Shown here: positions 11,631-34,667 of the stretch, in pieces
How positions within the stretch are numbered: the first letter of the stretch is position 1
Layout: each line of letters starts with the position of its first letter
Origin: an uncultured Candidatus Saccharibacteria bacterium
Lineage (GTDB): Bacteria; Patescibacteriota; UBA1384; DTJR01
Direction of reading: 5' to 3'
Length of the DNA: 64,000 bases
Assembly: GCA_964487045.1 (NCBI GenBank)
Contig: CAZAOT010000003.1
Coordinates: 3,730 to 67,729 of the forward strand
Notes under the pieces: generated by a model
Told to the model about the DNA's origin: nothing
Databases searched by the model: none
The model's input: only the letters and a program-made list of their open reading frames with translations
Position numbers and translations under genes: made by a program

Positions 11631-13277
11631 GTGCATCGACGATATTTAGTAAGGAGGAATTTGGGCGACGATATAAGTAAGGCGTTGAAGATGTTCTCCC
11701 GCGAGGAGGAGGAAAAATTAGCCCGCGATCAGGCGGCCAGGCTTGGCTATCCTTATATTAATTTAGTTGGCTTCCCGTTCACTCCAGAGGTAATTAGTGT
11801 CTTGCCTAAAGACCAGTCCAAGGCTTTGCAGGCGGTTTCTTTTTATAAATTAAACGACGTAGTTAAGGTCGCAACGAGTAATCCAAAGAATCCTGAGCTC
11901 GTTCCATTTTTGAAAGATTTGGCTGCAGCGACAAACTTGAAATTTTACTTGTATTTTTGCTCCGACTCCTCGCTAAAATACGGCTTAGCGCAGCTTGAGT
12001 TCGTCAAGGAAGCGCCAAAGACCATGGAAAAGCACGTGATCTCAAACGACTATATACAAGGCAAATTTGGGGGCGCTCAGGACCTTCAAGCCATCGGCCA
12101 AAAGATCCTTGAAACGTCCGTTACCGATATCATGGACATCATTTTTGCTGGGGCAATTCATCTTGATGCATCCGATATTCACATCGAGCCGATTGAGTCA
12201 GGAGCGCGTCTTCGTTATCGAATCGATGGAATCTTGCAAGACATTATCACGCTTCCCGAGGATACATATAAGGCGCTTCGTAATCGTATTAAGTACCTGT
12301 GCAAAATGAAGATGAACATTACCGAGGAACCGCAGGACGGGCGCTTTGATGTAGAAATTGGCGGCAAAAGCATTGATATCAGGGTTTCGCTTATGCCGAG
12401 CGCATGGGGCGAGGTAATTGTCACCAGGTTACTTAATCCATCCGGGGCGATGGTGACTTTGGAAGAGCTTGGTTTTAATCAGAAGGCGCTTGCGGATATT
12501 GAAGAGGCGATCAAAAAGCCTAATGGTGCGATTTTCAACACAGGTCCAACCGGTTCGGGAAAAACAACGACTTTGTATTCTATTTTGCAAAAATTAAACT
12601 CTCCAGAAGTTAAAATCATAACCCTTGAAGATCCGATCGAGTACCGTATCGCTGGGATCGATCAGAGTCAGGTAAATCCAGAAGCTGGGTTTGACTTTGC
12701 CTCGGGCTTAAAGCACGCCCTTAGACAAGATCCGGACATTATCATGGTTGGAGAAATTCGCGACAAGGAGACCGCCGAAACAGCACTTCAGGCTGCACTA
12801 ACCGGACATTTGGTTTTGACTACCCTGCACACCAATTCCGCTCCATCTGCAATTCCTAGAATGATCGATTTGGGGGTCAGGCCGTTTCTTTTATCAGGCT
12901 CGATTAATTTAATTATCGCTCAAAGACTTGTTCGAAAACTTTGCCAAGCATGTAAGGGTGCGGGCAAGGGTTGCGCCGAATGCCGAGGCACGGGCTACAA
13001 GGGTAGAGTCGCCTTGATCGAAACTTTGAAAATTACGCCTAGGATAGAAGAACTAATTGCGAAACAGGCGAATGTAACTGAGTACGAGCGAGTTGCTAGA
13101 GAAGAGGGGATGATCCCGATGCGTGAGGATGGCTTGGCTAAGGTCAAGGCTGGCATTACAACCGAAGAGGAAGTAAATCGAGTGACTAGTGAGGAAGTGC
13201 CCGCTCCGAAACCATCACAGCCAGCAGCAGATGCTGCGCAGCCCGAGCAGACTTCGGCCATACCGCCGCAGGTTTAG
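11631..13277 (+). CDS. Type II/IV secretion-system ATPase (PilB/GspE family). True start possibly the TTG near 11664, after AAGGAGG.
   Basis: GSPII_E N-terminal domain. Walker A GPTGSGKTT. Asp/His boxes. C-terminal tetracysteine CQAC...CAEC zinc motif. Confidence 0.85.
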   Translation: MHRRYLVRRNLGDDISKALKMFSREEEEKLARDQAARLGYPYINLVGFPFTPEVISVLPKDQSKALQAVSFYKLNDVVKVATSNPKNPELVPFLKDLAAATNLKFYLYFCSDSSLKYGLAQLEFVKEAPKTMEKHVISNDYIQGKFGGAQDLQAIGQKILETSVTDIMDIIFAGAIHLDASDIHIEPIESGARLRYRIDGILQDIITLPEDTYKALRNRIKYLCKMKMNITEEPQDGRFDVEIGGKSIDIRVSLMPSAWGEVIVTRLLNPSGAMVTLEELGFNQKALADIEEAIKKPNGAIFNTGPTGSGKTTTLYSILQKLNSPEVKIITLEDPIEYRIAGIDQSQVNPEAGFDFASGLKHALRQDPDIIMVGEIRDKETAETALQAALTGHLVLTTLHTNSAPSAIPRMIDLGVRPFLLSGSINLIIAQRLVRKLCQACKGAGKGCAECRGTGYKGRVALIETLKITPRIEELIAKQANVTEYERVAREEGMIPMREDGLAKVKAGITTEEEVNRVTSEEVPAPKPSQPAADAAQPEQTSAIPPQV

Positions 13278-13308
13278 TTTGCAAGTAAATAAATTTTTTT
13301 AAGTATAA

Positions 13309-13341
13309 AAAAACTCCCCGAGAGATCGGGGAGTTTTTCGT
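13309..13341. terminator. Bidirectional terminator between the PilB gene and the convergent VirB2-like gene
   Basis: AAAAAACTCCCCGAGAGATCGGGGAGTTTTTCG. Confidence 0.55.
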
Positions 13342-13350
13342 TCAATGTCT

Positions 13351-13776
13351 TTATTCTAGGCTTCCGCTGCCAAAGCTGTTTACTACTCCATTGTAGATAA
13401 TTAGAGCTGCTAGAACAATCACAATTCCGATAATAGCGTTTGTAATTGCGGTTCGTCCTTTTCCTGCTTTTTCAGCATCTCCACCAGCTGTGATGTATAG
13501 AACGCCTCCGTAAACCAAGTAAATCACTGCCAATATACCGATTACTGTAAGCAAGATGTTAACGATGTTTGTTATTGTGTCTGTTAAGCTAATATCACCC
13601 CTTGGCGTTAAGGGATTCACTTCATTCAAATCAATCTGTGCAAAAGCGACTGAAGTCCAGGCGCCCGCTGCTAATACTGCTGTTCCCACTTTGGCCGAAA
13701 CATTTTTGAGTAACTTCATAACCCTCCTAGTTGATTTACTAATATATATTCTAAAGACGTTTTCAAAGCTTGTCAA
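13351..13776 (-). CDS. VirB2/TrbC-like small membrane protein (paralog 5 of the GGD-motif family)
   Basis: 141 aa. Signal peptide + two TM helices + ITAGGDAEKAGKG motif. Shared with the proteins at 17821-19354. Confidence 0.5.
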   Translation of the reverse strand: MTSFENVFRIYISKSTRRVMKLLKNVSAKVGTAVLAAGAWTSVAFAQIDLNEVNPLTPRGDISLTDTITNIVNILLTVIGILAVIYLVYGGVLYITAGGDAEKAGKGRTAITNAIIGIVIVLAALIIYNGVVNSFGSGSLE

Positions 13777-14771
13777 ATATTGTCAATTTTGTGAATTCCG
13801 TCAGAGGCGAATAAATAAATTTCTGAGCCAGAGAAGATTATATCACTTACTTCAGGTAGCGTGCTTAGGTCAATCTTTCTAATTATTTTGGAGGGGTTTG
13901 AAATGTTCGAAATTATAAGATTTTGTCCGTCTGTATTCGAAACAATCGCAAGTCGATTGTTAGAGTAATCTGTTAGACGAAGCGAGGTTGTGTCAATTTT
14001 TGTGCGGGATTTGGTGTCTAGGTTTAGCAATTGTACCTCGCTTTCAAACTCGAATTCTTCTGATTGGATCAGTAGCTGCCCAGCTCCTGCTTGTTTTGCA
14101 TCAGAAATAAATCCGTTTTGGAAAATCTTGGTGGTTGTTCCAGTTGCTGTATTTAGTTCGATTAAATCATTTGATTCGTACCCGGAATTATTTTGAACGA
14201 TTATCGCTTTTTCAGGTTGCGTGAGAATAATTCTTCTCGGGGGAGCAAACTTCAAATCAACTATTTTTCTCTGGTTCTTTCCATCAGGGTCAGAGTAAAT
14301 TATCCTGTTAACCGTGTTTGGATCGTATTCATAGTCTTGTGAAAAGCAATTTGCCAAAATAGTGGACTCATCTTTCCAGGTAATAGCTTCGGCAAGACAC
14401 TGCTCTATTTTTATTACCTTTCCTGATTCAACGTCAACAATATAATTTTCGCTGCCATCACCTTTTTCTATGGCAACTATCACCTTTGAATTCGACGGAG
14501 ATGGGTAGTAATCCAGGATCTTGCTGGAGCCCTGGTAGATTATTTTTCTTGATCCATCTGCCTGAGTAAGAACTAGGTTCTTGCTTTCGAAAATATAAAA
14601 TAGGCTTCCCTGAATTAGCGTTGGTTTTTCGGCGATATCACTTGAAACCAGCTCATGACTTTGATTGATCGAGGCGACGTTTGGCTCCTCTCTGTTGTTG
14701 AAAATAATAAACCCAGCAACGAGAGCAGTAATTATCCCTATGAAGATTAAATATCTTTTTTTATTGTTCAT
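13773..14771 (-). CDS. Signal-anchored exported protein with a beta-propeller-like repeat region
   Basis: 332 aa. N-terminal TM. Repetitive D/S/G-rich strands. No family recognised. Confidence 0.4.
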   Translation of the reverse strand: MNNKKRYLIFIGIITALVAGFIIFNNREEPNVASINQSHELVSSDIAEKPTLIQGSLFYIFESKNLVLTQADGSRKIIYQGSSKILDYYPSPSNSKVIVAIEKGDGSENYIVDVESGKVIKIEQCLAEAITWKDESTILANCFSQDYEYDPNTVNRIIYSDPDGKNQRKIVDLKFAPPRRIILTQPEKAIIVQNNSGYESNDLIELNTATGTTTKIFQNGFISDAKQAGAGQLLIQSEEFEFESEVQLLNLDTKSRTKIDTTSLRLTDYSNNRLAIVSNTDGQNLIISNISNPSKIIRKIDLSTLPEVSDIIFSGSEIYLFASDGIHKIDNI

Positions 14772-14775
14772 ATAT

Positions 14776-16263
14776 TTATTTTAACCCCAAACACTTGCCT
14801 GGATCGAAGTAGCCCGTAGTTGAGGAATTCTGATTCATCAGTTGAAAATGAAGGTGGGCCCCAGACGACCAGCCATTATGATCAACCTGAGCAATAACTT
14901 GTCCCTTTTCGACACGTTCACCGGTCTTAACACCTACGCTACCGGTTCTAACGTGATGATATTCGCTGTAAACTCCGTTATCGTGTTTGATTCTAATTAG
15001 ATTCCCGAAGCCTCCATTTTGCGAAGTGTTGCCCCAATAACCACTCCCATCTTTGTATCCTTTGTCTTCGACTAAGACTACGGTACCAGCCATAACCGAC
15101 ACTATCTTTGTTCCTGTCGGTGCGCCAAAATCATATCCTCGATGCTGGGCCCTTCCTCTTTTACCTGTCAGCCCAGATGTTACGTGAGTATTTCCTGGAA
15201 TTGGGAGTGCACACTCTCCTTTGCCGGTAATGATGTCCTCGCCGCCGTAGTCGCTTGTGGGTGCATTATAAAAGTCCGAGGCTTCGGTTCTTCTTGAAAA
15301 TTCAGCCATAAATGCTTGGGCAACTTGCGGACGGAAATCTTGGCCAGCTGCAGGGCCTTCCGCAGGGGTCTCGGATTCTGGTGGGCACTTGTCACCACGG
15401 TCGACCTTGGGAGATGTTTCGACTGCGGAACTAGCTACTGTGTTTGTAGTTGCGCCCGATGCTTGTGTCGTCTTTGGATCAGTCGTAGTTTGCGCGGACG
15501 TGGCCTTCGGCGCTACCGAGAAATAGTTATTTACTCCTCGCTGAAGTGCAGCCGCAACCTTATCCTGCACAGAAGCCTGCTTGTATTTTTCGACAAGTGT
15601 TGGGTTGGAGTGACCGTAAACTTCTACGGTAATTACGGGAGCTTTTGAGTGTGCCGAGATCATAAGTAGCTTGCCCCAGCCGAGTTTATCGTTAGAGTTG
15701 TTGTAGGCTTCACCGTGCGGTGGCCTCACGGACTTAAACCCGCTGGATAGCATCGCTCCATTTATCTTGCTTGCCATTGTCTTGGCGACACTTAAATAGT
15801 TATCTATATGGGGAGAAGTTACATTATATTTATCGGGTCCGGCGACGTCAGGGTAGAGGATGTGATAAGCGTCAACTTTAAGATTGTCAGAATGAATACT
15901 TACCACCATTTCGGCGCCGGCACGATTGGCGATTTCAGCGCGCGCCCTCGTGTCAACATACTCTTTCCCTGATGTATGTCCGCCGAGCGCTTGGCCATTT
16001 TGGGTTCTTGTCATAACAACCTTATATCCATCCGCAATCAGTCTAGCTTGTAATTTCTTAGCTATCTCAAGTTCCGTGGGCCCCTCTATGGGGCGATTAT
16101 TAACTACGGTGCCATGGCCAGCATCGATCACAACAGTGTGTCCATTTCCGGCAGCTTTTGCTTGGGCAGTAAAAAGGCAAACCATCAATAACACCAGGCC
16201 AAAAAATCTGGTCTTGAAGAGACGATTTACTAATTTTCTGGCAATATATCGATGATTTTCCAT
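14776..16263 (-). CDS. Bifunctional peptidoglycan hydrolase: N-acetylmuramoyl-L-alanine amidase (Amidase_3) + C-terminal M23/LytM peptidase
   Basis: VVIDAGHG...MTR amidase motifs at the N-terminus. C-terminal HRGYDFGAP...HLHFQL M23 zinc motifs. Signal peptide. Confidence 0.8.
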   Translation of the reverse strand: MENHRYIARKLVNRLFKTRFFGLVLLMVCLFTAQAKAAGNGHTVVIDAGHGTVVNNRPIEGPTELEIAKKLQARLIADGYKVVMTRTQNGQALGGHTSGKEYVDTRARAEIANRAGAEMVVSIHSDNLKVDAYHILYPDVAGPDKYNVTSPHIDNYLSVAKTMASKINGAMLSSGFKSVRPPHGEAYNNSNDKLGWGKLLMISAHSKAPVITVEVYGHSNPTLVEKYKQASVQDKVAAALQRGVNNYFSVAPKATSAQTTTDPKTTQASGATTNTVASSAVETSPKVDRGDKCPPESETPAEGPAAGQDFRPQVAQAFMAEFSRRTEASDFYNAPTSDYGGEDIITGKGECALPIPGNTHVTSGLTGKRGRAQHRGYDFGAPTGTKIVSVMAGTVVLVEDKGYKDGSGYWGNTSQNGGFGNLIRIKHDNGVYSEYHHVRTGSVGVKTGERVEKGQVIAQVDHNGWSSGAHLHFQLMNQNSSTTGYFDPGKCLGLK

Positions 16264-16736
16264 TGACCTTCAATCTTTTGATATTTAAGATAAGTTACGT
16301 CACTCTCGGATGAATCTTTATATTCTCTAGTGCCGGTGATTTTATAGGTTAAAATTTCTCCATCTTCATTATCGCTTTCGACAAGTTCGATTTTTGAAAT
16401 AGAATATTTTTGGCTCGAGGCGAAGCCCTGCTTTTTGTTAAATTCTTTTTGAACTTCTGCCAATTCTTTTTGGTCTTCGAAGAACTGATCTGACGAATAA
16501 GGCTTGATCGAATTTAGATATTCCTCAGTAGTATTGTCTGTGAAATTTTGAAGTTTATCGATGGCTTGGCTAGCCTCTTGTTTCACCTGTAGTTGCTCCG
16601 AGGTCAGCTCATTGTCCGGGATAGAAGGTGACTCGCCGGCCGAGGGTGACTCGGGTTTAAGTAGAAAATAGGCAATAATTCCCGCTAGAATTACTATTGC
16701 TATGATTATTAATAATTTTTTGTTTTTCATTTGCAT
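16230..16736 (-). CDS. Small signal-anchored secreted protein
   Basis: 168 aa. N-terminal TM then acidic soluble domain. Overlaps neighbouring genes by a few nt (operonic). Confidence 0.35.
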   Translation of the reverse strand: MQMKNKKLLIIIAIVILAGIIAYFLLKPESPSAGESPSIPDNELTSEQLQVKQEASQAIDKLQNFTDNTTEEYLNSIKPYSSDQFFEDQKELAEVQKEFNKKQGFASSQKYSISKIELVESDNEDGEILTYKITGTREYKDSSESDVTYLKYQKIEGQWKIIDILPEN

Positions 16737-17818: not shown

Positions 17819-17820
17819 CG

Positions 17821-18273
17821 CTATTTTTGATTCATGAGTTGCTGCACTTCAGCTTGTGTCCTTGCAGGAGTTGGATTGTTTAATGCGTTAACCCCGAACC
17901 TAAAGACGACAAATGACGCCAATATTATCAACATTCCTACAATTGAGCCAGTGATAATTTTTTTAGCAGATTCGGCTTTTTCGCTGTCTCCTCCTGCGGT
18001 TATATATTTTAAGCCAGCAAATATAAATGTAAGCGCCGTTACAATTCCCATTATCCATAAAAAGATTATAATTCCATTGATTACAAAAATTCGAGGATCT
18101 GACGTGGCGTTAGGATTTAAGCCTATAATTTTGCCGCTACTCGTTGTACCGCTCGTGCCAGTGCAGGCGGGATCTGATGGATCGCAGGTAATGATTGGAT
18201 TGCCTGGGAGATCTTTGATTGTTTGATTTGTTAATCCATCGATATCAAAAGCCATTTTTCTCCTAAATTCCAT
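17821..18273 (-). CDS. VirB2/TrbC-like small membrane protein (paralog 4)
   Basis: 150 aa. TM-TM with ITAGGDSEKAESAKK motif. Confidence 0.5.
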   Translation of the reverse strand: MEFRRKMAFDIDGLTNQTIKDLPGNPIITCDPSDPACTGTSGTTSSGKIIGLNPNATSDPRIFVINGIIIFLWIMGIVTALTFIFAGLKYITAGGDSEKAESAKKIITGSIVGMLIILASFVVFRFGVNALNNPTPARTQAEVQQLMNQK

Positions 18274-18631: not shown

Positions 18632-18647
18632 TTCTTCTTTCCTTAGT

Positions 18648-19049
18648 TTATAGATTTGGGAAGGCTGTAAGTGGCGCTGATTGGCTGGCTACAAAGGTAA
18701 CTATTTTGATCCCTAAAAGTACTAGGCTCATAGCTAACATTCCATAAACGGTCCAGGTTAAATTTTTCTTAGCCTGTTCCATTTTTGTTGCATCTCCCAT
18801 GGCGAGAACATACATGCCACCTGAAAAAAGGAGTGAGGCAAAGGCTAGAATGGTCAATATGTAAGGAAGTCTGTCCAAAAATGATTCGGCTGCTACCTGA
18901 AGGGCGGCGTCGGGTGTGACGCCGCTAGCTACTGACATATCTAGCCGTTGAAGATTTTTTCTGGCATTCTCTAAGTCGCTTTGAGCCAAGGCAGTTCCGG
19001 GCAAGAAAACAAGTAGAAATAGGTAGTAAAATTTTTGTAAGGCTTTCAT
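18648..19049 (-). CDS. VirB2/TrbC-like small membrane protein (paralog 2)
   Basis: 133 aa. Signal peptide. LAMGDATKMEQAKK motif. Confidence 0.5.
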   Translation of the reverse strand: MKALQKFYYLFLLVFLPGTALAQSDLENARKNLQRLDMSVASGVTPDAALQVAAESFLDRLPYILTILAFASLLFSGGMYVLAMGDATKMEQAKKNLTWTVYGMLAMSLVLLGIKIVTFVASQSAPLTAFPNL

Positions 19050-19051
19050 GG

Positions 19052-19354
19052 TTAATAAAGAATACTCCTTATAATTGTGGCCGCGCCTACGAGAAGTATA
19101 AGTCCGGTAATTGCGCCAATAATCAACTCTTTCGCTTTACCGGTCTTGGTCGAATCACCGCCAGAGGCGGCGTACATGATCCCAGCGACAAGTATGACTA
19201 TGCCAGCCAGGACACTTCCAAGTGGCAATATCAGACTGTAATACCATCTGCCGACGAGTCCATATAATGCGTCGACGTCAGTGCTTGTCTGCGCGAAGGC
19301 AATTGCGGGAAAAAAAATTGTAGCTACTATGAAAGCTTTGGAAATTTTATTCAC
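19052..19354 (-). CDS. VirB2/TrbC-like small membrane protein (paralog 1)
   Basis: 100 aa. Signal peptide. AASGGDSTKTGKAKE motif. Confidence 0.5.
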   Translation of the reverse strand: MNKISKAFIVATIFFPAIAFAQTSTDVDALYGLVGRWYYSLILPLGSVLAGIVILVAGIMYAASGGDSTKTGKAKELIIGAITGLILLVGAATIIRSILY

Positions 19355-20828
19355 TTTGCCCCCACTTTGTCTTGGCGGCTTGAAGCATGATACTAGTGTC
19401 TTTGGCGGCGCGATCTAAGGCCTCCTTTGGATCAGTCTTTTTATTAGACGCGTTCTCGATCATGGCGATAAATATTTGGTCAATCTCAAGTGCTTTATGC
19501 CCTTTGTACCAAAGATCCCCCCAGGTTTTTTCGGTGGCAAAGGCATCAAACTTAGCATTTCCCTTAGTTTCTTTTAATGCCGAAGGCAGTTGCAAGTGAG
19601 ATAGATAGGGTGATGAGCCCTGCTTGCTGGTTACATATTTGATAAAGTCCCAGGCAGCTTTTTGCCTTGCTTGATTACCTTTAGCGGAAGGAGCAACCTC
19701 AACTTGCATCCTAACCATTGTTTTGAGCTTGCCCGAAGCAACTGGGCTTGATGGGTCTATGATTTGTGGTAGCGGTTGAGCGCTGATTTTTGATTTGAGC
19801 GAAGGTGCTTCCGTCACTAAAAAGCGGTAGAGGTCGGCATAATGAATAATCATTGCAACCTGACCCTGCTCAAATGCTTCTACGTCGTTTGGCATGCTCG
19901 AATTCCAGGTGTACAAAGCGCTCTGGGGATCAGCGAACTGAGTGTAGAAATTTAGCGCTCGAAGACCCGGCATTGAGCTTGAAACTGCCTGACCAACTGA
20001 TTGATTAAATGTGGCCGAGCCCATGTCTTTTGAGGTCATCTCGGTGCCATTTTGAAGCATGATAGCGCTCAAAATGTCGTACGATCTCTCGACGTTCGTG
20101 CCTGTTCCTAGTGCGATTGCGGACTGCGTGATTGAGTCGTCGTCTTTAATCGTTAGGTATGGAACGATATCGGTTAGCTCAGTCCAGGTCTTAGGAGCTG
20201 CAAGAATTTTTTTTGAAATAGACGACACTTCTTCGTCAGTGAGGCTTTTATTTATCCTGTTGGTTTTTTTTAAGTTATCGACTGACTTTTGAAGCAATTC
20301 CTTGTTCATGTACAAAGCAAGTGGATCAAGTGCAATTGGCAGGCCATAGACTTTTTCATTACCGGAGGTGTCCTGTAAAATACAGGATTTACCAACTACA
20401 TCTTCATAAAGTAATCGAACAGAATCGGAAGCGTTTTTGCCGGTATTTTCAGTTTTTTTCTTGCTCGAATTAAATAGTGCATCTGGCGCCGGAGCGAGTT
20501 GCGGGGCATATTTGGGCAGGTCTTCGACATTTATTGAAAAAATATCTGGAGCATTACCGACAGACTGATTCGCAGCTAATGCCTGAATAACGTCCTGCTC
20601 ATAGGTTCGTGGATCTCGAGTTACAATTTCTATTTTTATATTTTTATTCGCGCTAGTATATTGTTTGGCAATCTCTTGGAGTGCTTCCTCTCTGGCGTCA
20701 GACTGGGAGTGCCACCAGTAGAGTGTTGTGGGTCCGGTCGTTGTCTTGGTTCCACCAGAAGAACAGCCGCTCATAAATACGGTTGCGCCGGCAAGTACCA
20801 GAACTGACAATTTTTTAGCTACCTTCAA
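19347..20828 (-). CDS. Lipoprotein, extracellular solute-binding protein family 1 (ABC sugar-binding-like)
   Basis: 493 aa. Lipobox LVLAGATVFMSGC. SBP_bac_1-like length and composition. Confidence 0.65.
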   Translation of the reverse strand: MKVAKKLSVLVLAGATVFMSGCSSGGTKTTTGPTTLYWWHSQSDAREEALQEIAKQYTSANKNIKIEIVTRDPRTYEQDVIQALAANQSVGNAPDIFSINVEDLPKYAPQLAPAPDALFNSSKKKTENTGKNASDSVRLLYEDVVGKSCILQDTSGNEKVYGLPIALDPLALYMNKELLQKSVDNLKKTNRINKSLTDEEVSSISKKILAAPKTWTELTDIVPYLTIKDDDSITQSAIALGTGTNVERSYDILSAIMLQNGTEMTSKDMGSATFNQSVGQAVSSSMPGLRALNFYTQFADPQSALYTWNSSMPNDVEAFEQGQVAMIIHYADLYRFLVTEAPSLKSKISAQPLPQIIDPSSPVASGKLKTMVRMQVEVAPSAKGNQARQKAAWDFIKYVTSKQGSSPYLSHLQLPSALKETKGNAKFDAFATEKTWGDLWYKGHKALEIDQIFIAMIENASNKKTDPKEALDRAAKDTSIMLQAAKTKWGQSE

Positions 20829-20909
20829 GCCCCTCCCATATCAAGCTAATTGGTTAACTACAGACAATTATATCATTTTTTGCAAAACAATTTATTGACC
20901 TACTGGGTG

Positions 20910-22298
20910 TTATTTGTAATCAGCTTTTACAAATTCTCCGCTGAAGAGACCCGTTTTGTTTGAGTAATAAAAATTGTCCGCATTGGCTGTGAATGAACTT
21001 GCTGATTTAAGGCCGGTAATTTCTGCAAAATAATCGAGCGACTTTGTACTGAGATTATATTTGATCGGCCGGCCGTCTGAGACTGCGGCCAGAGTGTTCT
21101 CATCGCTGAATGCTATTAGTTTGTTTGAGACCTTGAAAGGCAAGGCTTGGACTTTTAGATCTTGGCCAACTTGATAGGCGATGCCGTCTGAATCGAGAGC
21201 GACTGCGTACTTTGCGTTTGGTCCCCAGCTGGCGAAGACGAAATTTTTATCTGATTCAACGCGAGCATACTGGCGAAGAGGGATGCTCAAAATTCCTAAT
21301 TGTCCACCGGCAATTAGCACCTTGTCTGGACTTTCACCCCAGTCGAACATTGGATTGGTGAAGCCCTGATCAAATTGCATAATCATATTTGCCTCGCTGT
21401 GGTCGCGATTGGCGAGATAAACATCCCAGCCGTATGAACTAAGAAGGTCATAGATAAGATGAGAATTTGCTTTGGCAAAATATGAACTTTCGGAGTTGTT
21501 CCAGGCGATGGAGTGAATTGCCGAAGCTAGCGGAGGTAATTTAGCCTCGACTTGATTGACTAGATCTGTCTTGGAAAAGTCGACGATCTTAATTGCCTCG
21601 TTATCTAATACGAGGGCAAAGCTATTGTCCTTGGAGATCTTAATGATTTTAGCGGTTGGATAAACACCATTTGTCAGTTTATCGGCTACAGCTTTATTGT
21701 CAGTAAGGTTGACGGCCGAAATTGAAGAGTTTTGGTCCAGGTAAAACAGCAATTTTCCATCTGAGGAGATAATTGGGTATCGGCTTCCGGGGATATTTAG
21801 TGTTGGCGTCTTCTCTTTTTCAAATTTAAAGCTAAGCTTCACCGTTTCGGCCATTCTAAAATTTCTGCTTTGAATATATGAAATATAGCCGTTCTTTTCG
21901 GCAATAATTGTGTGAAAGCCGGGCATAACCTTATAAACACCGGGGTCTATTTCGCGCTGGTCAAGAAGAATTCTGTCCGGTCTTGGATCGGGGTTAATTT
22001 CAAATGTCACTCGGTAAAAAAAGAAATAAAATACTGCTGCAAGTGCTAGGATAACCACCAAGACCCAGACAATTATAGTTAGAAGGGGAGACCTTGGGCG
22101 GCGAATTATTGCCTTTTTGCCAACTGAACCGTCTGGTGGCGGGGGTGGCGCTTGAGGTGGAGCTTTTACCTCTGGCGCGGCGGGCGGCTCTACAGGAGGC
22201 TTAGGGGGAGTAGGTGACTGCGAAGAGGGTTCAGTCTCGACTTTCTCGGGGTTCCCGTTTGCGATCTCTTCGATCGGTTTTATTTCATCATTTGCCAT
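20910..22298 (-). CDS. Bitopic membrane protein: Pro-rich N-terminus, one TM, beta-rich extracytoplasmic domain (possible VirB8/VirB10 analogue)
   Basis: 462 aa. PPKPPVEPPAAPEVKAPPQAPPPPP then TM LLTIIVWVLVVILALAAVFYFFF. Sits directly after VirB4. Confidence 0.4.
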   Translation of the reverse strand: MANDEIKPIEEIANGNPEKVETEPSSQSPTPPKPPVEPPAAPEVKAPPQAPPPPPDGSVGKKAIIRRPRSPLLTIIVWVLVVILALAAVFYFFFYRVTFEINPDPRPDRILLDQREIDPGVYKVMPGFHTIIAEKNGYISYIQSRNFRMAETVKLSFKFEKEKTPTLNIPGSRYPIISSDGKLLFYLDQNSSISAVNLTDNKAVADKLTNGVYPTAKIIKISKDNSFALVLDNEAIKIVDFSKTDLVNQVEAKLPPLASAIHSIAWNNSESSYFAKANSHLIYDLLSSYGWDVYLANRDHSEANMIMQFDQGFTNPMFDWGESPDKVLIAGGQLGILSIPLRQYARVESDKNFVFASWGPNAKYAVALDSDGIAYQVGQDLKVQALPFKVSNKLIAFSDENTLAAVSDGRPIKYNLSTKSLDYFAEITGLKSASSFTANADNFYYSNKTGLFSGEFVKADYK

Positions 22299-22300
22299 TA

Positions 22301-25074: not shown

Positions 25075-25075
25075 G

Positions 25076-25642: not shown

Positions 25643-25644
25643 AA

Positions 25645-25785
25645 TTAAACCAACTCCGCCATTGACCGAACTCGTCTCGCCCTCTCACTCTGCGATCCCT
25701 GTGATAACAGAGTGTAACTCGTTTCACGGGAAGCAGTAGTGACGGGGTCTTCTAAATCAATATTTTGCGGTACTTTGTACTGCAT
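25645..25785 (-). CDS. 47-codon upstream ORF whose first 13 residues (MQYKVPQNIDLED) duplicate the PrgI-like N-terminus with synonymous recoding
   Basis: ATG at 25785-25783 and stop at 25647-25645, 2 nt before the PrgI-like ATG. Eight of 13 duplicated codons differ synonymously. Promoter with extended -10 TGcTATAAT upstream (minus strand, about 25830-25870). Confidence 0.3.
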   Translation of the reverse strand: MQYKVPQNIDLEDPVTTASRETSYTLLSQGSQSERARRVRSMAELV

Positions 25786-25915
25786 CTTGAGCGCTTGCCC
25801 CTATCCTTAAAATTCCCTCTTTGCTGTAAGACTTGACCTAGAATTAATTATAGCACACCAAAATAATTGCCTACATTGCCAATTATTCTTAGTGCTTATA
25901 TTTACGGTAAAGTAA

Positions 25916-28900: not shown

Positions 28901-30295
28901 TCCCGACTGAGCCATGCTGGCAATCTTGGTATCTGAAAATCCGAGGTTGTAGCTAGCATTTAGTCGACTGGCGCCAATAATTTTGGCAGCCATCTGGTAA
29001 TTGCCGCTCTTAAGTTGGTTTATTGCAGAAGCCGGAATGAGTGTTGCTACGTCAGAATTTTGATGAGCGCTTAGGGCTGCGACAGCTGCTGCTACCTCTT
29101 CTGGTGTTGGGTTTTCGCCAAGGGCTATTCCAGCTTGATCATAAAGTGCCTTTTTACCGATAGTCTCGAGCTTAGCTCCATCTCGAAGCGATCCTGCCGG
29201 AAGTCCTTGTTGCTTCTCGTATGCTCGCTCTAGCATTTGCGCTGCTCGATCTTCAAACGATAGTTTAGTTGCAGCCTGCTTGGATAATTCAGGAATTGTC
29301 GCACCTGTCGCGGTAGTTAAATCAGCCGGTGGATCATTGTGAACCATTAATTCTGGCTCGGCATCTGGGTCGGCAAAATCGGCAGCAATTTGGACTGGAC
29401 CCAGGCCCGCCCGCTCAGCAGCGTCAAGCCCGGCAGTAAAAAGCGTCGAATTTCCTTCTTTAATCTCAGCCAGTCCTTCTTGAACTTCTGGAGAAGCTTG
29501 AGCTGAAGAATTCGTAGCAGCAGCAAGAGCTTGTTCGGTGACTTGTGAAATTTCAGCCTTATCGCTCTGACCAATTGCTAAGTTATTTGCAATTACTTGC
29601 GGTTCGTCACCAGTGATAATAGTGCATCCAAAAGTTCTGACATCTACTCCTTGCCCGCGTGAATGTGACGAGAAAGTGCTTCTTGAATCTGTGGCGGCCT
29701 TGTCGTCTTCCAATCCACTCTGGGCAACTGCGGTCGGCTGACCATTGTCATCCATATATGAAGCAGCGACTGACAAGGTCATAATTGGTGCGGTCTTGCC
29801 TTCGTATGAGCAATCAACATCGAACCCTTTGCTAGTGAATCTTTTTTCATAAAGGTAATAAATAGCCGCTAGAGATCTTTTGTCCCAGTGAGAGCTAAAT
29901 AGGTGAAACATTTCCACGCCATTGTCCATGGCCATCGAAAGGGGATCAAGGAAAACGATCCCAGACTTTCCTTCGTCGTGTGCCTTGCATAATTCGTCAA
30001 ATCGAGTCGAACCGATATCTTGTGCCTGATCGAATAATTTTTTGAAATCATCTTCCGACTCTGGGTAGGCGGGTTCATCGGCAGTTTTAGTCTTATTCCA
30101 AATGTCCTTGTCGCAAGAAAGGTTAAGGATTGTCGTAGCGGCTTTAACGTCGGAAGGAGATGACTTTTTAACTTCCTGCTTGAAACTTGACCCTGTTGCA
30201 CCGCTACCGAGTCCCAAGCCCGACACAAAAGTCGGCGTTGCAACCGAGGCTACAACGATGTTGAGCGCTAGAAGTAATGGTAGAAGTGCCCCCAT
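25916..30295 (-). CDS. Giant (1459 aa) secreted/membrane-anchored protein of the T4SS locus (possible VirB6-like or surface adhesin)
   Basis: N-terminal signal peptide. Long Ala/Ser/Lys-rich low-complexity central region. Three or four TM helices at about aa 1100-1180 (ILTSIAMNYAATWIASLGISMPILLGISLL...). Confidence 0.5.
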   Translation of the reverse strand: MGALLPLLLALNIVVASVATPTFVSGLGLGSGATGSSFKQEVKKSSPSDVKAATTILNLSCDKDIWNKTKTADEPAYPESEDDFKKLFDQAQDIGSTRFDELCKAHDEGKSGIVFLDPLSMAMDNGVEMFHLFSSHWDKRSLAAIYYLYEKRFTSKGFDVDCSYEGKTAPIMTLSVAASYMDDNGQPTAVAQSGLEDDKAATDSRSTFSSHSRGQGVDVRTFGCTIITGDEPQVIANNLAIGQSDKAEISQVTEQALAAATNSSAQASPEVQEGLAEIKEGNSTLFTAGLDAAERAGLGPVQIAADFADPDAEPELMVHNDPPADLTTATGATIPELSKQAATKLSFEDRAAQMLERAYEKQQGLPAGSLRDGAKLETIGKKALYDQAGIALGENPTPEEVAAAVAALSAHQNSDVATLIPASAINQLKSGNYQMAAKIIGASRLNASYNLGFSDTKIASMAQSGVSSDELISYIESNRTMSETEKDQLRALTAGGYAALRSKLDEAQAQKDSSVAGKFLIALKGSPALNETQRIALNDFLTKKEFRSGVAQRMSGTKAIQTIIDWVNQNQNISDEDAKGCKEIFDVYSSSSDYVSALDKAYPSVYASTISSSTNLMKPEEKAIFQSVFGANPTPKELEEGFENGKLEQASEAYIFSRGLQKIGLSAAQASYLGVGLAQDRLNGTDVGLAKINQEVGKKWGVTLTKQDLTLFKNGNFAAGKKLALGAIASKSKLPVQKVVDYFSKKDYSSASAISSAFSSNPKLGKETKEMLDGMLGSDTSKGVAASAYAGAKAKARAIATSSAEGSSVDQAEKDRQTTSDKVEKALDKALDKGKAAAQDEGRNILTAKGLNNKEADAITSGQVKGAEKVIANSIVAKKIVSQLPPGTVTIEGVKSVLAGRSTAAERDALRDNLVNYELAQQHIYYSGTRSITDTLMHGTEAERQALLADIGKQSGANALKEVAEANNIPISREQALEFMNNDFSQLGNVAGQTLLANGFSRITNTQISGEAASALYSALTEAISSSPRPTTTYPTTTSNVGIDPSGSNSGDAAFSNMNNDPTSDVPSNLSGEPGVAVDNENNNISNANNATNAGKDTLNKVETPENKLENLGWGVVEDQLGFSRDAIVNLQDNVQNLPNNIVDYYKNFDYNATLSNIATGVILNKLVGNTLAKIDPTGGILTSIAMNYAATWIASLGISMPILLGISLLIDFKSTIQAIKGLVIMALQIFTDPVGFIMGFLGFGKKKPKAQSAAKNAVKAAKDDTLDGKIVDAPIEQPAGTAPEGGTYVFAPAIVYAADDKPSPVSASSAYLAPKKPSEEQFKKISRRTVDQVAEDLLLYSLAASSNRELTKTDTSFLKKHWSNFMDIENPKNGTYAIKQLISPRAVITSDEVEAAKKLGITDALYAKESSEPMVGYRQIVNYARLLYGEDFLPSKTNKRVSGLMQNRSIKTHVHFGF

Positions 30296-30397
30296 TTATT
30301 TTATTTGGGGAACGTAAATTCCCTGTTTATCCAATCCGAGCGTGCCAACATAAAACATTGCGCCAAAGAGTATTAGTGTGCTAACTAGAACAACCAT
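30296..30397 (-). CDS. 33-aa single-TM peptide ORF abutting the giant gene (TAAATG junction)
   Basis: MVVLVSTLILFGAMFYVGTLGLDKQGIYVPQIK. The stop is immediately followed by the giant-protein ATG. Below the ORF-track size cutoff. Confidence 0.3.
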   Translation of the reverse strand: MVVLVSTLILFGAMFYVGTLGLDKQGIYVPQIK

Positions 30398-30463
30398 CCA
30401 AAATAGCTTGCGATTTTTCACAATTTAATTATACCAAATCCTTCCTTTGCTGATGCAACTAGA

Positions 30464-31558
30464 CTATTGGTAGAGATCGGCAATTGAACTAGCCTGACTT
30501 TGAGGTGGATTTGCTTGGTTTGTGGGAGGTGCTGGAGGGGTTGGAGCTGGACTTGGGTTATTATCCTGAGGTGTTTCCGGAGCAGGTTGTGGCTCAGGAG
30601 TTATTGGTGCGGCAGGTGATTCGTCCTGTTGTGGTTTTGTCTGATCTTCAGGACTTGCTGGTGTGCTTGAGAAGCTCCATGGCGCTGGGTTGTCGGTTGG
30701 CGAAGATGGTATTGCCTCGGTGGCCTCTTGTGGAGGGGTTGACTCTGGAGCCTCAGGCATTTGCTCGGTTGGCTTAGGTGCTTCCGCTTCCTGAATCTCG
30801 GCTGGCGGAGTAGCAACAGGTTGCGTTTCAGGAGTTATTGGCGTGTCGATAGCTTCTGGCTTGGAAGTTTCTACAGGCTTTTCTTCCTGAACAGGATTTG
30901 AGCTATTTGGTGAAAAGTTTACGTCAAGTGGCTTTTCTTCTGCAGCTGCAGTAGGAAGAACGTCGGTTTTGACTACGCCCGAGCCAAATGTATCCATAGG
31001 CTTTTCTTCCTTTGGCTCTGTACCAGCTTCTTCTGCCGTCTTTTCGACTGGTGTAGGTGGCGCGGGAGCGACCGAAGAAGGCATATTCTCATCCTCTTCG
31101 TCTTCGCCGATATTCTTATCAAGCTCGCTTTCGCCTAGATTCGAGAGTGAACTTCCAGATGGCATATCTGGTTCCTTTGGTGCTGCTTGCTCGATCGGAG
31201 GTTTGTTATCAAGATTTATGGTCGGTTGGCTCTCGCTTGGCTCCTCTAACTTCTTTTCTCTAGCTTTCTTGAACCCCTCCATTACTTCCTGAGAAGTTTT
31301 TTCGAGAATTGAGGCGGCATCAGGATGTGTCTTGATGATTTTGTCGATTATTGCGCTCGGGTCGTCGTTTGGCATAGCGTCGAGCTCTTCTTGCAGTTTC
31401 TTTGATGCTTCATCGTCTAGGCTGGTAAGGAGGTTTGCGATAAATCGCTCACTCATCTTCTGATCAATTTCTTCAAGAATTGTTTGCTTCTCTTGATCAG
31501 GAATATTCTCAAGGCCCAACATCTCAAGCAGCTTTTTGTCATCTTCGTTTATTTCCAT
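30464..31558 (-). CDS. Acidic, Pro/Glu-rich intrinsically disordered protein (364 aa)
   Basis: Low-complexity EPKP/TPP-rich composition throughout. N-terminal about 100 aa helical. Confidence 0.5.
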   Translation of the reverse strand: MEINEDDKKLLEMLGLENIPDQEKQTILEEIDQKMSERFIANLLTSLDDEASKKLQEELDAMPNDDPSAIIDKIIKTHPDAASILEKTSQEVMEGFKKAREKKLEEPSESQPTINLDNKPPIEQAAPKEPDMPSGSSLSNLGESELDKNIGEDEEDENMPSSVAPAPPTPVEKTAEEAGTEPKEEKPMDTFGSGVVKTDVLPTAAAEEKPLDVNFSPNSSNPVQEEKPVETSKPEAIDTPITPETQPVATPPAEIQEAEAPKPTEQMPEAPESTPPQEATEAIPSSPTDNPAPWSFSSTPASPEDQTKPQQDESPAAPITPEPQPAPETPQDNNPSPAPTPPAPPTNQANPPQSQASSIADLYQ

Positions 31559-31565
31559 AGTCCTC

Positions 31566-34016
31566 CTAATACCATTTATATATATTTATTTTCTCGGCGT
31601 TTTCTACGTCGGCCGGATTTATCCTGGCAACTCTTCCAGCAGTGCGATCAAGGACAATTATTTCTTGGCTGTTTAAGTCAACTGCAAGGACGTCCAGCTC
31701 ATGGTTCACATCATCACCTTCCCAGATTTTCTTAATTTCTTCACGTCCTTCCCGACGTTCTGTCTTTCTGACAAGTTCTACTCTATATCGATTATTATTA
31801 GAGTAGGGCGCAAATCTGGAAAGATCGTGGCTCAGAGCATAGGTTGTCAAATTATTTCTAGGAGTATATCCGTCGGGGAGATCTCTTGGGGTCAATTCAA
31901 CTACGGGGCTTCTAGAAGCTCTTCTCATCTCTGTAAGATCGAGATTCGGTGCATTCTCCCCAGCTTCGGTTGACATACCAAAAATAGCTGAACCATCGGC
32001 AGGTGGTGTTTGTGGAAGATAATTATCGCCCTCAACTGCAAGCGCGATTTTAAATCTTCTTGGTGGATCTGCGTTGTTATTTTCATTAATAGCTTGAATA
32101 AGGTTCGTGATATTTTGTCTTTCAATATCAGTCATATCGTCCCAGTTGCGATGGGTTGACGCATAGAGGGCTGCGTTTGCGTTGTCTACGAAGTCATACC
32201 AATTATTATTTAAAATATCTGTCCAGTTTACAACTAATTCTGTTGGCACTTCTGGTTCAGTTCTAACTTCATTCTCAGTCTCGGGTACAATTGGTTCGCG
32301 CGGAGTGACCGCTGGGGTTGTTTCTGGTCTTGCGCCTGGTCTACCGCCGTCTGGGCCATCTCCACCTGAACCATTTCCTCCAGATTCGTGGCCTCTAATT
32401 GCGGTTCCCTTCAGTCCCGGCCCTGAAACGCTTTTTCTTTCGGCGGCCATATTTACTCCGGCACCGATTGCAGCGCCGTGCGCCAGGCTCTGAGCGGCCA
32501 TCGATGGCATCGAGAGTGAGTCAACGGCGTACTGAGTTGCATCAGCATGAAGCTCTGTATTAAATGGTATCTGGTCGTGGAGCGTGTAATCCCAGCCCCT
32601 GGTGGGAAAATTTTCAGTCAGATACTTGTCGGCATTCTTGAGCGTTTCGGCAAAGTGATTGTAGTCAAGATGGCCATCCGGCCCGAGCTTAGAGGCATTA
32701 TCTATCAAATGCTGAAGACCGTCTTTGTTAAAGTCATACTGATATCCATCCGCAATCACATTGTGTCCAGGTAGTGGCTGAGCAAAATTAAAATCGTGAA
32801 CCAGTTGGTTGACTGCTTCATCATAGGTCATACCCTGATTGACCATCATCTCATGTAAATAGGCTTGGGGAGGCTGTATGTCTTGGTGAAGGCCTTTTTC
32901 TAGAGCGCTACTTAAGGCATTGCCCCAGTCTGTATGTTGGTTGGGAATATGCTCCAGGAGTGGATTAGCGTCATAGCTGCTTGCGACTTCTCTTACGTCA
33001 GGTCCGTCCTGAATCGAAATTTCATTAGCTCTGCCAAAATGCTCCTGATAATATTCTCCTTTAAGGTGAGTCATTTTCATCCAGTGCAGACCAAATGATA
33101 CCGCGTCCGAGAGTGCACCTATTCCCGCACCGATCAGCGCCCCGCGCTTCATCCCGATAATCCCAGCTTTTTTAACCGAGTCTCGGACATCTTTCCTGAA
33201 TTCTTGTGTGTAAAATGCTCCGTGATTAGTTGCTTGGATAATTCTTGTTTCAAATCCTTCAGCTTCTCTCGCCTTACAATTGTAAAAGGCTAGCAGCTTG
33301 AGCATCTCGGGCAAATTACCGCTGAAAAGTTCATTTTTCTTGACGGCTTCTTCAGTGCGTAGATTTGATGGCCTAGACAAAAGAAACTGCTCGATAAATG
33401 CTAGGGCATTCGCGTCTCTTTCTGGATCGGTTTCGTCTCGAGATATTCTATTATATTCGGCAACTACTCCTTCATATCCGTAGCTTACTTCTCTTTGTTT
33501 TTCTTCAGCTCGCCATTTTCCGGCAATCCCACCAATTACTGCTCCTGTGATAGTGCCCGCACCATAACCCAAGCCATCAACTAGATGGAGAGCGGATCTT
33601 AAAACCATCGAGCTTCCTGTGGTCAGGGCTATTCTCTTTAATTTACCGGAATTTTTCCCGAACCACTTTTGTATACCGCTGTACCATTTCTTTTCTGGCT
33701 CTTCGATTGAAATTGTGCCGTTATCCTGGCTTATGCCAGATAGCATTTGGGATCTAAAGTTTGCAAACAGCATGTCAGTTCTTTGGTCAATTTCGCTAAG
33801 ATTTTGGCCGAAATAAGAATTAAGAAGTACCTCTCTCTCGTCTTCCGAAAGGGTAGTTTCGTATTGCTTTTCGACATAACGAACAATGCGCCGCCTAAGA
33901 ATTTGTGCTTGCGCAGAGTCTGTTACTTGAGGCTCTTCTTCTAAAGCCTCGTCTTGATCCTGGGCTGGGTCTTGATCGGCGGGAATTGGTTCCGCGCCTG
34001 GTTGGCCTAATCGCAA
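31566..34016 (-). CDS. Large hypothetical protein (816 aa) with glycine-zipper segments and a Gly/Pro-rich linker
   Basis: GxxxG zippers (GAVIGGIAGKW, GALIGAGIGALSD). GSGGNGSGGDGPDGGRPGARPETTP linker. TTG start after SD AAGGAGGG. Confidence 0.5.
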   Translation of the reverse strand: MRLGQPGAEPIPADQDPAQDQDEALEEEPQVTDSAQAQILRRRIVRYVEKQYETTLSEDEREVLLNSYFGQNLSEIDQRTDMLFANFRSQMLSGISQDNGTISIEEPEKKWYSGIQKWFGKNSGKLKRIALTTGSSMVLRSALHLVDGLGYGAGTITGAVIGGIAGKWRAEEKQREVSYGYEGVVAEYNRISRDETDPERDANALAFIEQFLLSRPSNLRTEEAVKKNELFSGNLPEMLKLLAFYNCKAREAEGFETRIIQATNHGAFYTQEFRKDVRDSVKKAGIIGMKRGALIGAGIGALSDAVSFGLHWMKMTHLKGEYYQEHFGRANEISIQDGPDVREVASSYDANPLLEHIPNQHTDWGNALSSALEKGLHQDIQPPQAYLHEMMVNQGMTYDEAVNQLVHDFNFAQPLPGHNVIADGYQYDFNKDGLQHLIDNASKLGPDGHLDYNHFAETLKNADKYLTENFPTRGWDYTLHDQIPFNTELHADATQYAVDSLSMPSMAAQSLAHGAAIGAGVNMAAERKSVSGPGLKGTAIRGHESGGNGSGGDGPDGGRPGARPETTPAVTPREPIVPETENEVRTEPEVPTELVVNWTDILNNNWYDFVDNANAALYASTHRNWDDMTDIERQNITNLIQAINENNNADPPRRFKIALAVEGDNYLPQTPPADGSAIFGMSTEAGENAPNLDLTEMRRASRSPVVELTPRDLPDGYTPRNNLTTYALSHDLSRFAPYSNNNRYRVELVRKTERREGREEIKKIWEGDDVNHELDVLAVDLNSQEIIVLDRTAGRVARINPADVENAEKINIYKWY

Positions 34017-34637: not shown

Positions 34638-34667
34638 GTTTTGTCTATTATTCTTTATTCTTAATTT

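Follow-up and report, generated by a model that had tools for sequence, protein, structure and literature searches.

A chromosomal, origin-proximal type IV secretion locus of the Patescibacteria clade, most probably for contact-dependent host exchange rather than conjugation

Introduction

What could a type IV secretion system (T4SS) do for a bacterium if no relaxase or coupling protein is encoded beside it? The locus that raises this question lies in a 64,000-nucleotide stretch of DNA, hereafter the window, from an uncultured Candidatus Saccharibacteria bacterium (GTDB lineage Patescibacteriota; UBA1384; DTJR01; GenBank assembly GCA_964487045.1, contig CAZAOT010000003.1, positions 3,730 to 67,729, forward strand). 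A sequence-only reading of the window had described a Gram-positive-style T4SS or pilus-like locus and favored a protein-secretion, host-attachment, or DNA-uptake machine over a conjugative element. The component identities were established by Pfam, NCBIfam, and PDB profile searches and motif inspection of the open reading frames (ORFs) of the window. All elements named by the sequence-only reading were recovered at their given positions, and the family scores far exceed chance. The results indicate that the locus is most probably a chromosomal, origin-proximal T4SS of the "Patescibacteria clade," a derivative of the mating-pair formation class MPF-FATA, which lost the DNA-processing module, gained VirB2-type pilins, and serves contact-dependent exchange with a host, not conjugation.

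This kind of system is already described, also in a 2025 review. VirB4, VirB6, and VirB2 together with an array of small secreted proteins were found across Saccharibacteria and other Candidate Phyla Radiation (CPR) bacteria (McLean et al. 2020, PMC7427843), and the pilus-bearing cluster of Southlakia epibionticum, which lacks coupling and relaxase proteins, proved essential by transposon sequencing (Wang et al. 2023, PMC10633639). A survey of 2,417 genomes (Quinonero-Coronel et al. 2025, PMC12102498) places the Patescibacteria VirB4 clade within MPF-FATA, with TrsD and PrgI encoded adjacently. Pilus-bearing, relaxase-less systems of this kind stand beside the replication origin in nearly all CPR/Patescibacteria. 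The survey also reports arrays of 2–11 pilins at about 25% identity, an absent or rare relaxase, a rarely adjacent type IV coupling protein (T4CP), the proximity of dnaA, dnaN, and rnpA, and scarcity of VirB6 in some classes. Since these three works describe the same system, the interpretation given by the sequence-only reading matches the published consensus, and the copy analyzed here is a typical Berkelbacteria-type member with a few lineage-specific additions.

Results

The PrgI-TrsD-VirB4 core

The VirB4 assignment, which the sequence-only reading had left to be checked by a profile search, was confirmed with model NF045971 (CD1110-type VirB4; 1.9e-109, 367 bits versus a curated cut-off of 325). 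The protein also matched the Pfam family P-loop_TraG (2e-28), and its best solved relative was the C-terminal domain of Thermoanaerobacter VirB4 (PDB 4AG5, 3.8e-44). The NTP-binding motifs, P-loop AKSGSGKS and Walker B ILIVDEAW, are intact. A search yielded 8000 homologues, the best-named of which belonged to Berkelbacteria; the top ones, 60%–95% identical, came from Berkelbacteria and other Patescibacteria.

The alignment of VirB4 covers positions 174–734 of the 752 in NF045971, and about the first 170 positions are missing. The TrsD-like protein encoded just upstream, which the sequence-only reading had overlooked, aligns to positions 1–119 of the same model and to positions 8–123 of TIGR00929. 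Therefore, VirB4 is a split protein consisting of TrsD and VirB4, an arrangement that the 2025 survey already reports for the phylum (PMC12102498). The TrsD-like protein matched NF041427 TrsD (2.8e-08) and carries a precomputed PF26593 TraC-like annotation; the stop codon of its gene and the start codon of virB4 overlap by 1 nt. The third core component is the PrgI/VirB3-like membrane protein, also correctly named from the sequence (Table 1). The best score of VirB4 on the CD1110/CTn2-type model and the presence of TrsD and PrgI, both MPF-FATA components, bear out the "Gram-positive style" of the locus.

VirB4, TrsD, PrgI, and the 462-aa protein encoded after VirB4 have Pro/Gln/Ala-rich low-complexity tails or heads (for example, residues ~590–675 of VirB4), which are unusual in these families.

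The VirB2-like pilins

All five small VirB2-like proteins listed by the sequence-only reading were recovered, four of them above the Pfam gathering scores of T4SS_pilin or TrbC. The five share only 19%–29% pairwise identity; in the alignment all have a conserved YxxxGGDxxK loop between two hydrophobic helices, and an AxAQ-type signal peptide is evident in three. Pilin 2, the one below the gathering score, has orthologues in related loci L001–L008 (see below).

Absence of a DNA-processing module

No sizeable ORF of the window had a Pfam family match to a relaxase, a T4CP (VirD4 or TcpA), an integrase, or a recombinase, in agreement with the earlier statement that neither relaxase nor VirD4 was visible. 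No att-like direct repeats bracket the T4SS locus, so that the arrangement named beforehand as the one that would speak for a mobile element, an adjacent relaxase or T4CP with flanking att repeats, was not found in the 64 kb. The GC content of the locus matches that of its flanks without deviation.

The 3' end of tRNA-Ser(CGA) is repeated directly over 22 nt (95%; 9154–9175 and 9279–9300), with the duplicate 125 nt downstream from the gene. The pair resembles a very small att-like remnant with just ~100 bp enclosed, and the T4SS is not bracketed by it.

Replication-origin setting and gene layout

Pfam scans and cumulative GC skew identified the window as the replication-origin region of a CPR/Patescibacteria chromosome, with about 6 kb between dnaA and the T4SS locus. 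The locus comprises 17 tightly packed co-directional genes (13351–34016, minus strand); 12 of the 16 junctions are overlaps or gaps of at most 7 bp, and the other gaps are 16, 81, 168, and 273 bp.

The cumulative GC skew has its minimum near dnaN/dnaA and rises from there, which points to the plus strand as the leading one on the right side of the origin. Transcription of the entire 17-gene operon would then run head-on against replication. With respect to dnaA, the S. epibionticum cluster is oriented in the same way.

Conservation of the core in related loci

A VirB4 scan of 185,579 species genomes gave 80 related loci (L numbers), the closest of which were from Berkelbacteria metagenome-assembled genomes (VirB4 72%–88% identical). 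The PrgI-TrsD-VirB4 core order recurs in 67–80 of these 80 Patescibacteria loci: PrgI is present in 67, and a TrsD-like gene lies upstream of virB4 in 73. The Berkelbacteria loci L001–L008 share a larger block composed of the bitopic protein, a solute-binding protein (SBP), four pilins, a hydrolase-family protein, and, after an interval, a further pilin and PilB. The middle segment 13773–16736 is specific to the genome studied here.

In Kazan-type and many other lineages, a protein of 850–1240 aa with 7–9 hydrophobic helices is encoded upstream of PrgI; in L009, L012–L018, L020, and L021 it is 850–980 aa long and immediately upstream (at about 5.8–8.8 kb in each). This protein is a candidate extended VirB6.

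Locus L065 contains a second, far more divergent TrsD-VirB4 pair (L065:13307–17045), 23%–29% identical to the query proteins. Directly after its Patescibacteria-type core, a weakly TrbL/VirB6-like 306-aa protein and a pilin are encoded, so two T4SS modules stand in tandem.

Table 1. Features of the T4SS locus and its surroundings (positions in the window)
Feature	Position	Strand	Evidence and remarks
PilB/GspE-type hexameric ATPase, 548 aa	11631..13277	+	T2SSE 4.5e-122, MshEN
VirB2-like pilin 5, 141 aa	13351..13776	-	T4SS_pilin PF18895 2.9e-13; signal peptide and two-helix hairpin
Bitopic 332-aa protein with extracytoplasmic domain	13773..14771	-	one N-terminal transmembrane helix
Secreted peptidoglycan hydrolase, Amidase_3 + Peptidase_M23	14776..16263	-	Pfam 5.5e-20 and 9.8e-23
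Bitopic 168-aa protein	16230..16736	-	one N-terminal transmembrane helix; no family match
Membrane-anchored hydrolase-family protein, 363 aa	16727..17818	-	
VirB2-like pilin 4, 150 aa	17821..18273	-	T4SS_pilin 3.5e-06, 27.4 bits; alignment
VirB2-like pilin 3, 122 aa	18263..18631	-	T4SS_pilin 1.9e-06, 28.3 bits
VirB2-like pilin 2, 133 aa as longest ORF (96 aa in Logan)	18648..19049	-	T4SS_pilin 5.2e-04, 20.5 bits, below gathering score
VirB2/TrbC-like pilin 1, 100 aa	19052..19354	-	TrbC PF04956 9.7e-08, 32.6 bits; T4SS_pilin 1.2e-06
Solute-binding lipoprotein (SBP_bac_1/8, sugar-type)	19347..20828	-	Pfam 2.5e-19 and 1.8e-19
Bitopic 462-aa protein	20910..22298	-	Pro-rich cytoplasmic N-terminus (8% Pro); transmembrane helix at 72-90
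VirB4 ATPase, 675 aa	22301..24328	-	NF045971, P-loop_TraG, PDB 4AG5
TrsD-like protein, 248 aa	24328..25074	-	detached N-terminal part of VirB4
PrgI/VirB3-like membrane protein, 188 aa	25076..25642	-	PrgI PF12666 2.2e-14
Relic second copy of prgI codons 1-13 (MQYKVPQNIDLED)	25747..25785	-	within ORF 25645-25785
Giant envelope protein, 1459 aa	25916..30295	-	hydropathy, five-sequence alignment
Small single-transmembrane ORF, 41 aa (33 aa in public assemblies)	30296..30421	-	ends exactly at giant-gene start codon
364-aa protein	30464..31558	-	~110-aa helical head, then acidic Pro-rich disordered tail; no transmembrane helix
816-aa lineage-restricted protein	31566..34016	-	helical N-part, Gly-zipper (Tim17/Romo1-like) helices, disordered linker 508-589, papain-like-fold region
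recF, dnaN, dnaA	1.9-5.6 kb		Pfam; dnaA at 4287-5624
rnpA, yidC, tRNA-Ser, Ham1 NTPase	after dnaA, before T4SS locus		
bPH protein, MraY-like GT4, NDK, M16 peptidase, EF-P, SSB, S6, Ddl, GltX, L19, DnaE, DnaX	beyond 34 kb		

Wall hydrolases and bitopic proteins

The peptidoglycan hydrolase noted earlier was confirmed as a secreted Amidase_3 and Peptidase_M23 protein. Its M23 motifs HxxxD and HxH are intact, NCBIfam matches to CwlD and M23 endopeptidase were obtained, and the operon of a relative carries an Amidase_3 and CHAP hydrolase. The protein is predicted to be a functional VirB1 analogue. The 363-aa membrane-anchored protein, overlooked by the sequence-only reading, has a conserved N-terminal module of ~170 aa that aligns with proteins of L002, L003, and L005–L008, whose C-termini are CHAP, Glucosaminidase, or C39-like domains. 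The protein of this genome itself had no Pfam, NCBIfam, or PDB match; the alignment assigns it to a putative VirB1-like hydrolase family with exchangeable catalytic modules. A sequence-based guess that its C-terminus is an RlpA-like DPBB domain found no support in Pfam, PDB, and NCBIfam searches.

The description of bitopic Pro-rich proteins in the locus held for the 462-aa protein, which is bitopic with a Pro-rich N-terminus, but not for the 364-aa protein, which is Pro/Glu-rich and lacks a transmembrane helix. The 462-aa protein is kept directly after virB4 in L001–L008. Weak Pfam matches point to a probable PEGA and beta-propeller ectodomain, and the PEGA protein SEML1_0005 of the S. epibionticum locus parallels it. 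The ectodomain of the 332-aa protein is possibly a beta-propeller too, as suggested by a weak YqgU-like propeller match (E=0.0087); no homologue of this protein was found in the related loci.

Fast-evolving proteins of the cassette region

The "giant membrane protein" of the sequence-only reading has, by hydropathy, an N-terminal signal anchor, a ~1150-aa Ala/Ser/Lys-rich ectodomain, two or three transmembrane helices (1181–1241), and a C-terminal domain of ~200 aa. Only 3 relatives were found in a word-indexed database of 5.8e9 clusters. At 49% identity to its orthologue, on a contig where the VirB4 identity is 90%, the protein evolves very fast, as exposed proteins facing the host typically do. 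In five homologues, an S-x-H-x-x-G-x-x-x-D motif and a C-terminal His, reminiscent of M15/LAS peptidases, are invariant, and one of the five N-domains weakly matches Peptidase_M15_4 (E=0.021). The N-terminal motif and the distant His might conceivably belong to a single split domain. A profile search of the N-domain against PDB gave nothing, and an AlphaFold2 (AF2) model of residues 1–340 built from 3 sequences was unusable (mean predicted confidence, pLDDT, 42.6), so a peptidase role of this domain may be taken only as a lead. The giant protein was also considered as VirB6; this found no support, since it has only a signal anchor and two or three helices, and iterative HMM searches gave no link to the Kazan-type proteins with 7–9 helices. 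The 41-aa ORF that precedes it may be a small T4SS subunit.

The 364-aa protein (15.9% Pro, 14% Glu) has no family match and a single homologue, in the same position in L006. For the 816-aa protein, 1.84 billion representatives yielded 20 relatives; sequence searches of Pfam, NCBIfam, and PDB gave no match, and a Foldseek search against PDB was not significant. In its papain-like-fold region no catalytic Cys is evidently conserved. Its family alignment contains no Cys or His column conserved at ≥90%, which makes an active protease unlikely. This upstream block is a cassette region: the giant protein is present in L002 and L008, the 816/364-aa pair in L005 and L006, and both here.

The relic copy of the prgI start sits exactly at the edge of this variable region, 143 nt upstream of the real start codon. 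It differs from the real sequence at 8 of 39 nt, all of them synonymous, and was not found in five relatives compared. It is probably a recombination scar, such as recombination with a diverged allele would leave. The alternative that the 46-aa ORF with the PrgI N-terminus is a functional peptide was judged less likely.

The PilB ATPase and the solute-binding lipoprotein

A PilB/GspE ATPase on the opposite strand beside the locus was correctly recognized from the sequence. It contains the Walker A motif GPTGSGKT and a zinc-type CxxC...CxxC tetracysteine motif and matched TIGR02538 PilB (1e-143, 480 bits; equivalog cut-off 675) and, weakly, NF053672 BasE (2e-11). The VirB11 model scored only 44 bits, and PilB as VirB11 was ruled out by these family scores. 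The gene converges on the end of the T4SS operon and appears to be its own transcription unit, with a terminator-like hairpin (11459–11487) and a promoter-like site (11493–11522) upstream. PilC, PilM/N/O, PilD, and class III prepilins were not detected by Pfam in the 64 kb of the window, and no real ORF there has a prepilin motif of the G-F-T-L-I-E type. PilC, PilD, PilM, and the prepilin motif were likewise missing from 20 PilB and VirB4 loci scanned in the genome collection.

PilB genes adjoin the T4SS core in four different arrangements. In L002, L003, and L005–L007, the Berkelbacteria group, PilB converges at a distance of +7.7 kb; elsewhere it lies on the same strand 0.8–1.5 kb after virB4 in the Kazan-type loci L009–L021 and in L080, forms a divergent pair with an SBP gene beside PrgI-TrsD-VirB4 in L065–L067, and faces the pilins and SBP in L085. 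The latter was the sole additional informative locus from a metagenome scan with PilB, which returned mostly generic PilBs of ~40% identity. In a rough neighbor-joining tree without bootstrap, which held no PilB linked to type IV pili (T4P) from the same genomes, most T4SS-linked PilBs (Berkelbacteria, Kazan, and L085 groups) formed one clade, apart from PilBs with PilT encoded next after them; those of L065–L067 fell elsewhere. No PilB was found within 10 kb of virB4 in most other lineages, including Doudnabacteria and loci labeled Saccharibacteria.

The SBP gene, the third component overlooked by the sequence-only reading, encodes a lipoprotein (lipobox FMSGC, not a class III signal), and no ABC permease or ATPase is encoded near it. 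It is kept in the same operon position in L001–L008 and adjoins PilB in L065, L066, and L085. The recurrent linkage of PilB and SBP to the T4SS core in several arrangements hints at a functional link, and the membership of PilB in the T4SS machine is uncertain.

Other features of the window

A GC-rich segment (38000–42000, 0.54–0.55 versus ~0.44 elsewhere) contains the M16 peptidase gene and a 395-aa ORF without a family match. An AT-rich intergenic repeat family with units of 62 nt and 29 nt, 77%–86% identical, occurs at 34551–34634, 35154–35182, and 37474–37558 and flanks the bPH, 23S-IVP-like, GT4, and NDK genes. The 176-aa Ala/Pro/Gly-rich ORF at 34147–34677 (plus strand), just upstream of the start of the 816-aa gene, has no family match and is probably not a real gene.

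Discussion

Comparison with known systems

The clusters of S. epibionticum ML1 (SEML1_0004–0019, PMC10633639) and TM7x (PMC7427843) share with the locus the position next to dnaA, dnaN, and recF, the order of a large protein, PrgI, TrsD-like protein, VirB4, large or bitopic proteins, and a wall hydrolase, the array of divergent PF18895/TrbC pilins, and the lack of a recognizable relaxase or coupling protein in the cluster. They differ in details. The S. epibionticum pilins form a separate divergent array of six genes, whereas here four follow the SBP gene in the operon and the fifth stands at its end. As its wall hydrolase, S. epibionticum has a triple lysozyme-like protein rather than Amidase_3 and M23. 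S. epibionticum has proteins of ~1000 aa, the best structural match of one of which, SEML1_0011, is annotated as "Type IV secretion system protein," while no polytopic protein was found here. Conversely, neither PilB nor SBP is listed among SEML1_0004–0020.

With the Gram-positive MPF-FATA systems (pGO1 Trs, pCF10 Prg/Pcf, and the CTn2 CD1110 type) the locus shares a VirB4 best matched by the CD1110 model, a pGO1-type TrsD, PrgI as the VirB3 equivalent of pCF10, and multi-domain wall hydrolases, which in relatives of this locus have CHAP and glucosaminidase domains. However, a relaxase, a T4CP, PrgH/VirB6, and surface adhesins belong to those systems, which have no VirB2 pilins, and here the reverse is the case. 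Bordetella Ptl and Helicobacter ComB also lack a coupling protein and relaxase and use VirB2 and VirB4, but both belong to the diderm MPF-T type, are built on a VirB7/9/10 core, and have identified substrates, pertussis toxin and incoming DNA, respectively. In the Sulfolobus bindosome assembly system (Bas; BasEF and pilin-like BasABC), a PilB-family ATPase is genetically associated with pilin-like and sugar-binding proteins. Bas has T4P-type prepilins, a PilC-like platform, and binding proteins with class III signals; the likeness is a resemblance only, and the present locus has VirB2-type pilins and a lipoprotein as its SBP.

Alternative explanations

Within the 64 kb, the locus was rejected as an integrative conjugative element (ICE), given the lack of relaxase, T4CP, integrase, and att repeats and the conserved synteny. 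An ICE or its decayed remnant with relaxase and coupling protein outside the window would agree with the homology of VirB4, TrsD, and PrgI to MPF-FATA conjugation proteins, with the tRNA-Ser gene 2.3 kb from the locus and the duplicate of its 3' end, and with a view limited to 64 kb. We nevertheless consider it highly improbable: no integrase, relaxase, T4CP, or flanking repeats surround the locus, whose GC content is that of its flanks; the tRNA duplicate lies on the side facing away from it; and core order and origin-proximal position are conserved across classes, in which VirB4 follows the class phylogeny according to the survey (PMC12102498). Import of host DNA or nucleotides by a ComB-like or Ced-like machine, in which VirB4 and a VirB2 pilus work without coupling protein or relaxase, is unlikely. 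The lack of T4CP and relaxase has a precedent in H. pylori ComB, cited in PMC11665869, where an uptake role was proposed for the T4SS of Patescibacteria, which cannot make nucleotides. VirB4 also has weak matches to the archaeal DNA-import ATPases CedB and CedD (3.7e-08 and 3.2e-05), but the CedB matches are far weaker than those to conjugative VirB4. Pfam found no ComEC, ComEA, DprA, or other competence gene in the window, and competence of S. epibionticum requires T4P and ComEC: deletion of comEC abolishes transformation and leaves viable cells, whereas the T4SS is essential (PMC12857230).

The third explanation concerns PilB and SBP. As a hypothesis, their functional coupling to the T4SS is doubtful, and the same degree of doubt applies to the idea that Berkelbacteria- and Kazan-related T4SSs recruited an ATPase of the PilB/GspE class and, in some lineages, an SBP of the sugar type, parts of no described T4SS, to form a hybrid machine; PilB/T2SSE and SBP genes in the vicinity of virB4 go unmentioned in the main text of the 2025 survey (PMC12102498). 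A hybrid nutrient-capture apparatus, with PilB and SBP as integral parts and the binding protein displayed or fed at the host interface, or with PilB as a VirB11-like third ATPase, seems quite unlikely. It would explain the varied arrangements in which PilB adjoins the core, the lack of PilC, PilD, PilM, and prepilin motifs in the window and the 20 scanned loci, the common clade of T4SS-linked PilBs, and the retention of SBP inside the operon in L001–L008. Yet the clade may only mirror organismal relatedness, the PilBs of L065–L067 are placed elsewhere in the tree, most other lineages and the listed S. epibionticum cluster have no PilB near virB4, the protein is PilB/GspE-like and not VirB11-like, and the SBP signal is of the lipoprotein type. 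If the hybrid existed, a type IV pilus motor would help drive a VirB2-type pilus, or the pilus or conduit would be coupled to the capture of host solutes in a bindosome-like manner; the T4SS would then be tied directly to the nutrient acquisition of auxotrophic epibionts.

Several points weigh against a host-directed, non-conjugative T4SS of the Patescibacteria clade. The absence of relaxase and T4CP covers only 64 kb of the genome; since VirD4-like and T4CP genes usually lie at a great distance from virB4 in Patescibacteria, as the survey reports (PMC12102498), it is no proof that none exists in the genome. No polytopic VirB6-like protein (at least five transmembrane helices) is encoded in the locus or window, apart from the unrelated MraY-like GT4, and the translocon composition is therefore incomplete or unorthodox. 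The closest relatives likewise lack the Kazan-type protein with 7–9 helices, and the survey finds VirB6 missing in some classes, which fits its absence here, so VirB6 is not strictly defining. For the 1459-, 816-, 364-, 332-, and 168-aa proteins, position and topology are the sole basis of the assigned roles. What the T4SS does in Saccharibacteria has been called "completely unknown" (PMC11665869), and its essentiality was shown only in a Saccharibacterium, S. epibionticum (PMC10633639), not in Berkelbacteria. On balance, the non-conjugative, host-interacting machine favored by the sequence-only reading is upheld by the absence of ICE features, the conserved core synteny, and the same view in PMC10633639 and PMC12102498. 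Secretion, attachment, and DNA uptake are not discriminated by the evidence here or in the literature.

Proposed working of the system

Component identities, operon structure, chromosomal context, and conservation were established by the analysis; from them and from the established roles of homologous parts, we infer the following order of assembly and mode of action. TrsD and VirB4 together would form the VirB4 ATPase, docked on the membrane via PrgI/VirB3. The wall hydrolases (the Amidase_3-M23 protein, the 363-aa family protein, and possibly the giant protein) would open the cell's own wall or that of the host, and the wall-spanning part could be scaffolded by the bitopic PEGA/propeller proteins. 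The five Sec-inserted pilin paralogues would be extracted from the membrane by VirB4 and polymerized into a pilus or conduit. The fast-evolving 1459-, 816-, and 364-aa proteins may act as surface-exposed host-contact components or as adaptors or effectors. The assembled machine would serve contact-dependent exchange with the host bacterium, either exporting effectors or importing macromolecules or nutrients.

Significance

Among T4SSs, that of Patescibacteria was the first to be shown essential for the organism bearing it. Because neither its substrate nor the direction of transport is known, it is among the main open questions on how ultrasmall epibionts live off their hosts. The locus is no new kind of system but a clean and complete Berkelbacteria-type example, in which invariant parts (PrgI-TrsD-VirB4 and the pilins) can be distinguished from rapidly exchanged ones (the hydrolase modules and the giant, 816-aa, and 364-aa proteins). 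Two candidate accessory parts emerge, PilB and the solute-binding lipoprotein, whose repeated linkage to the core could guide functional experiments.

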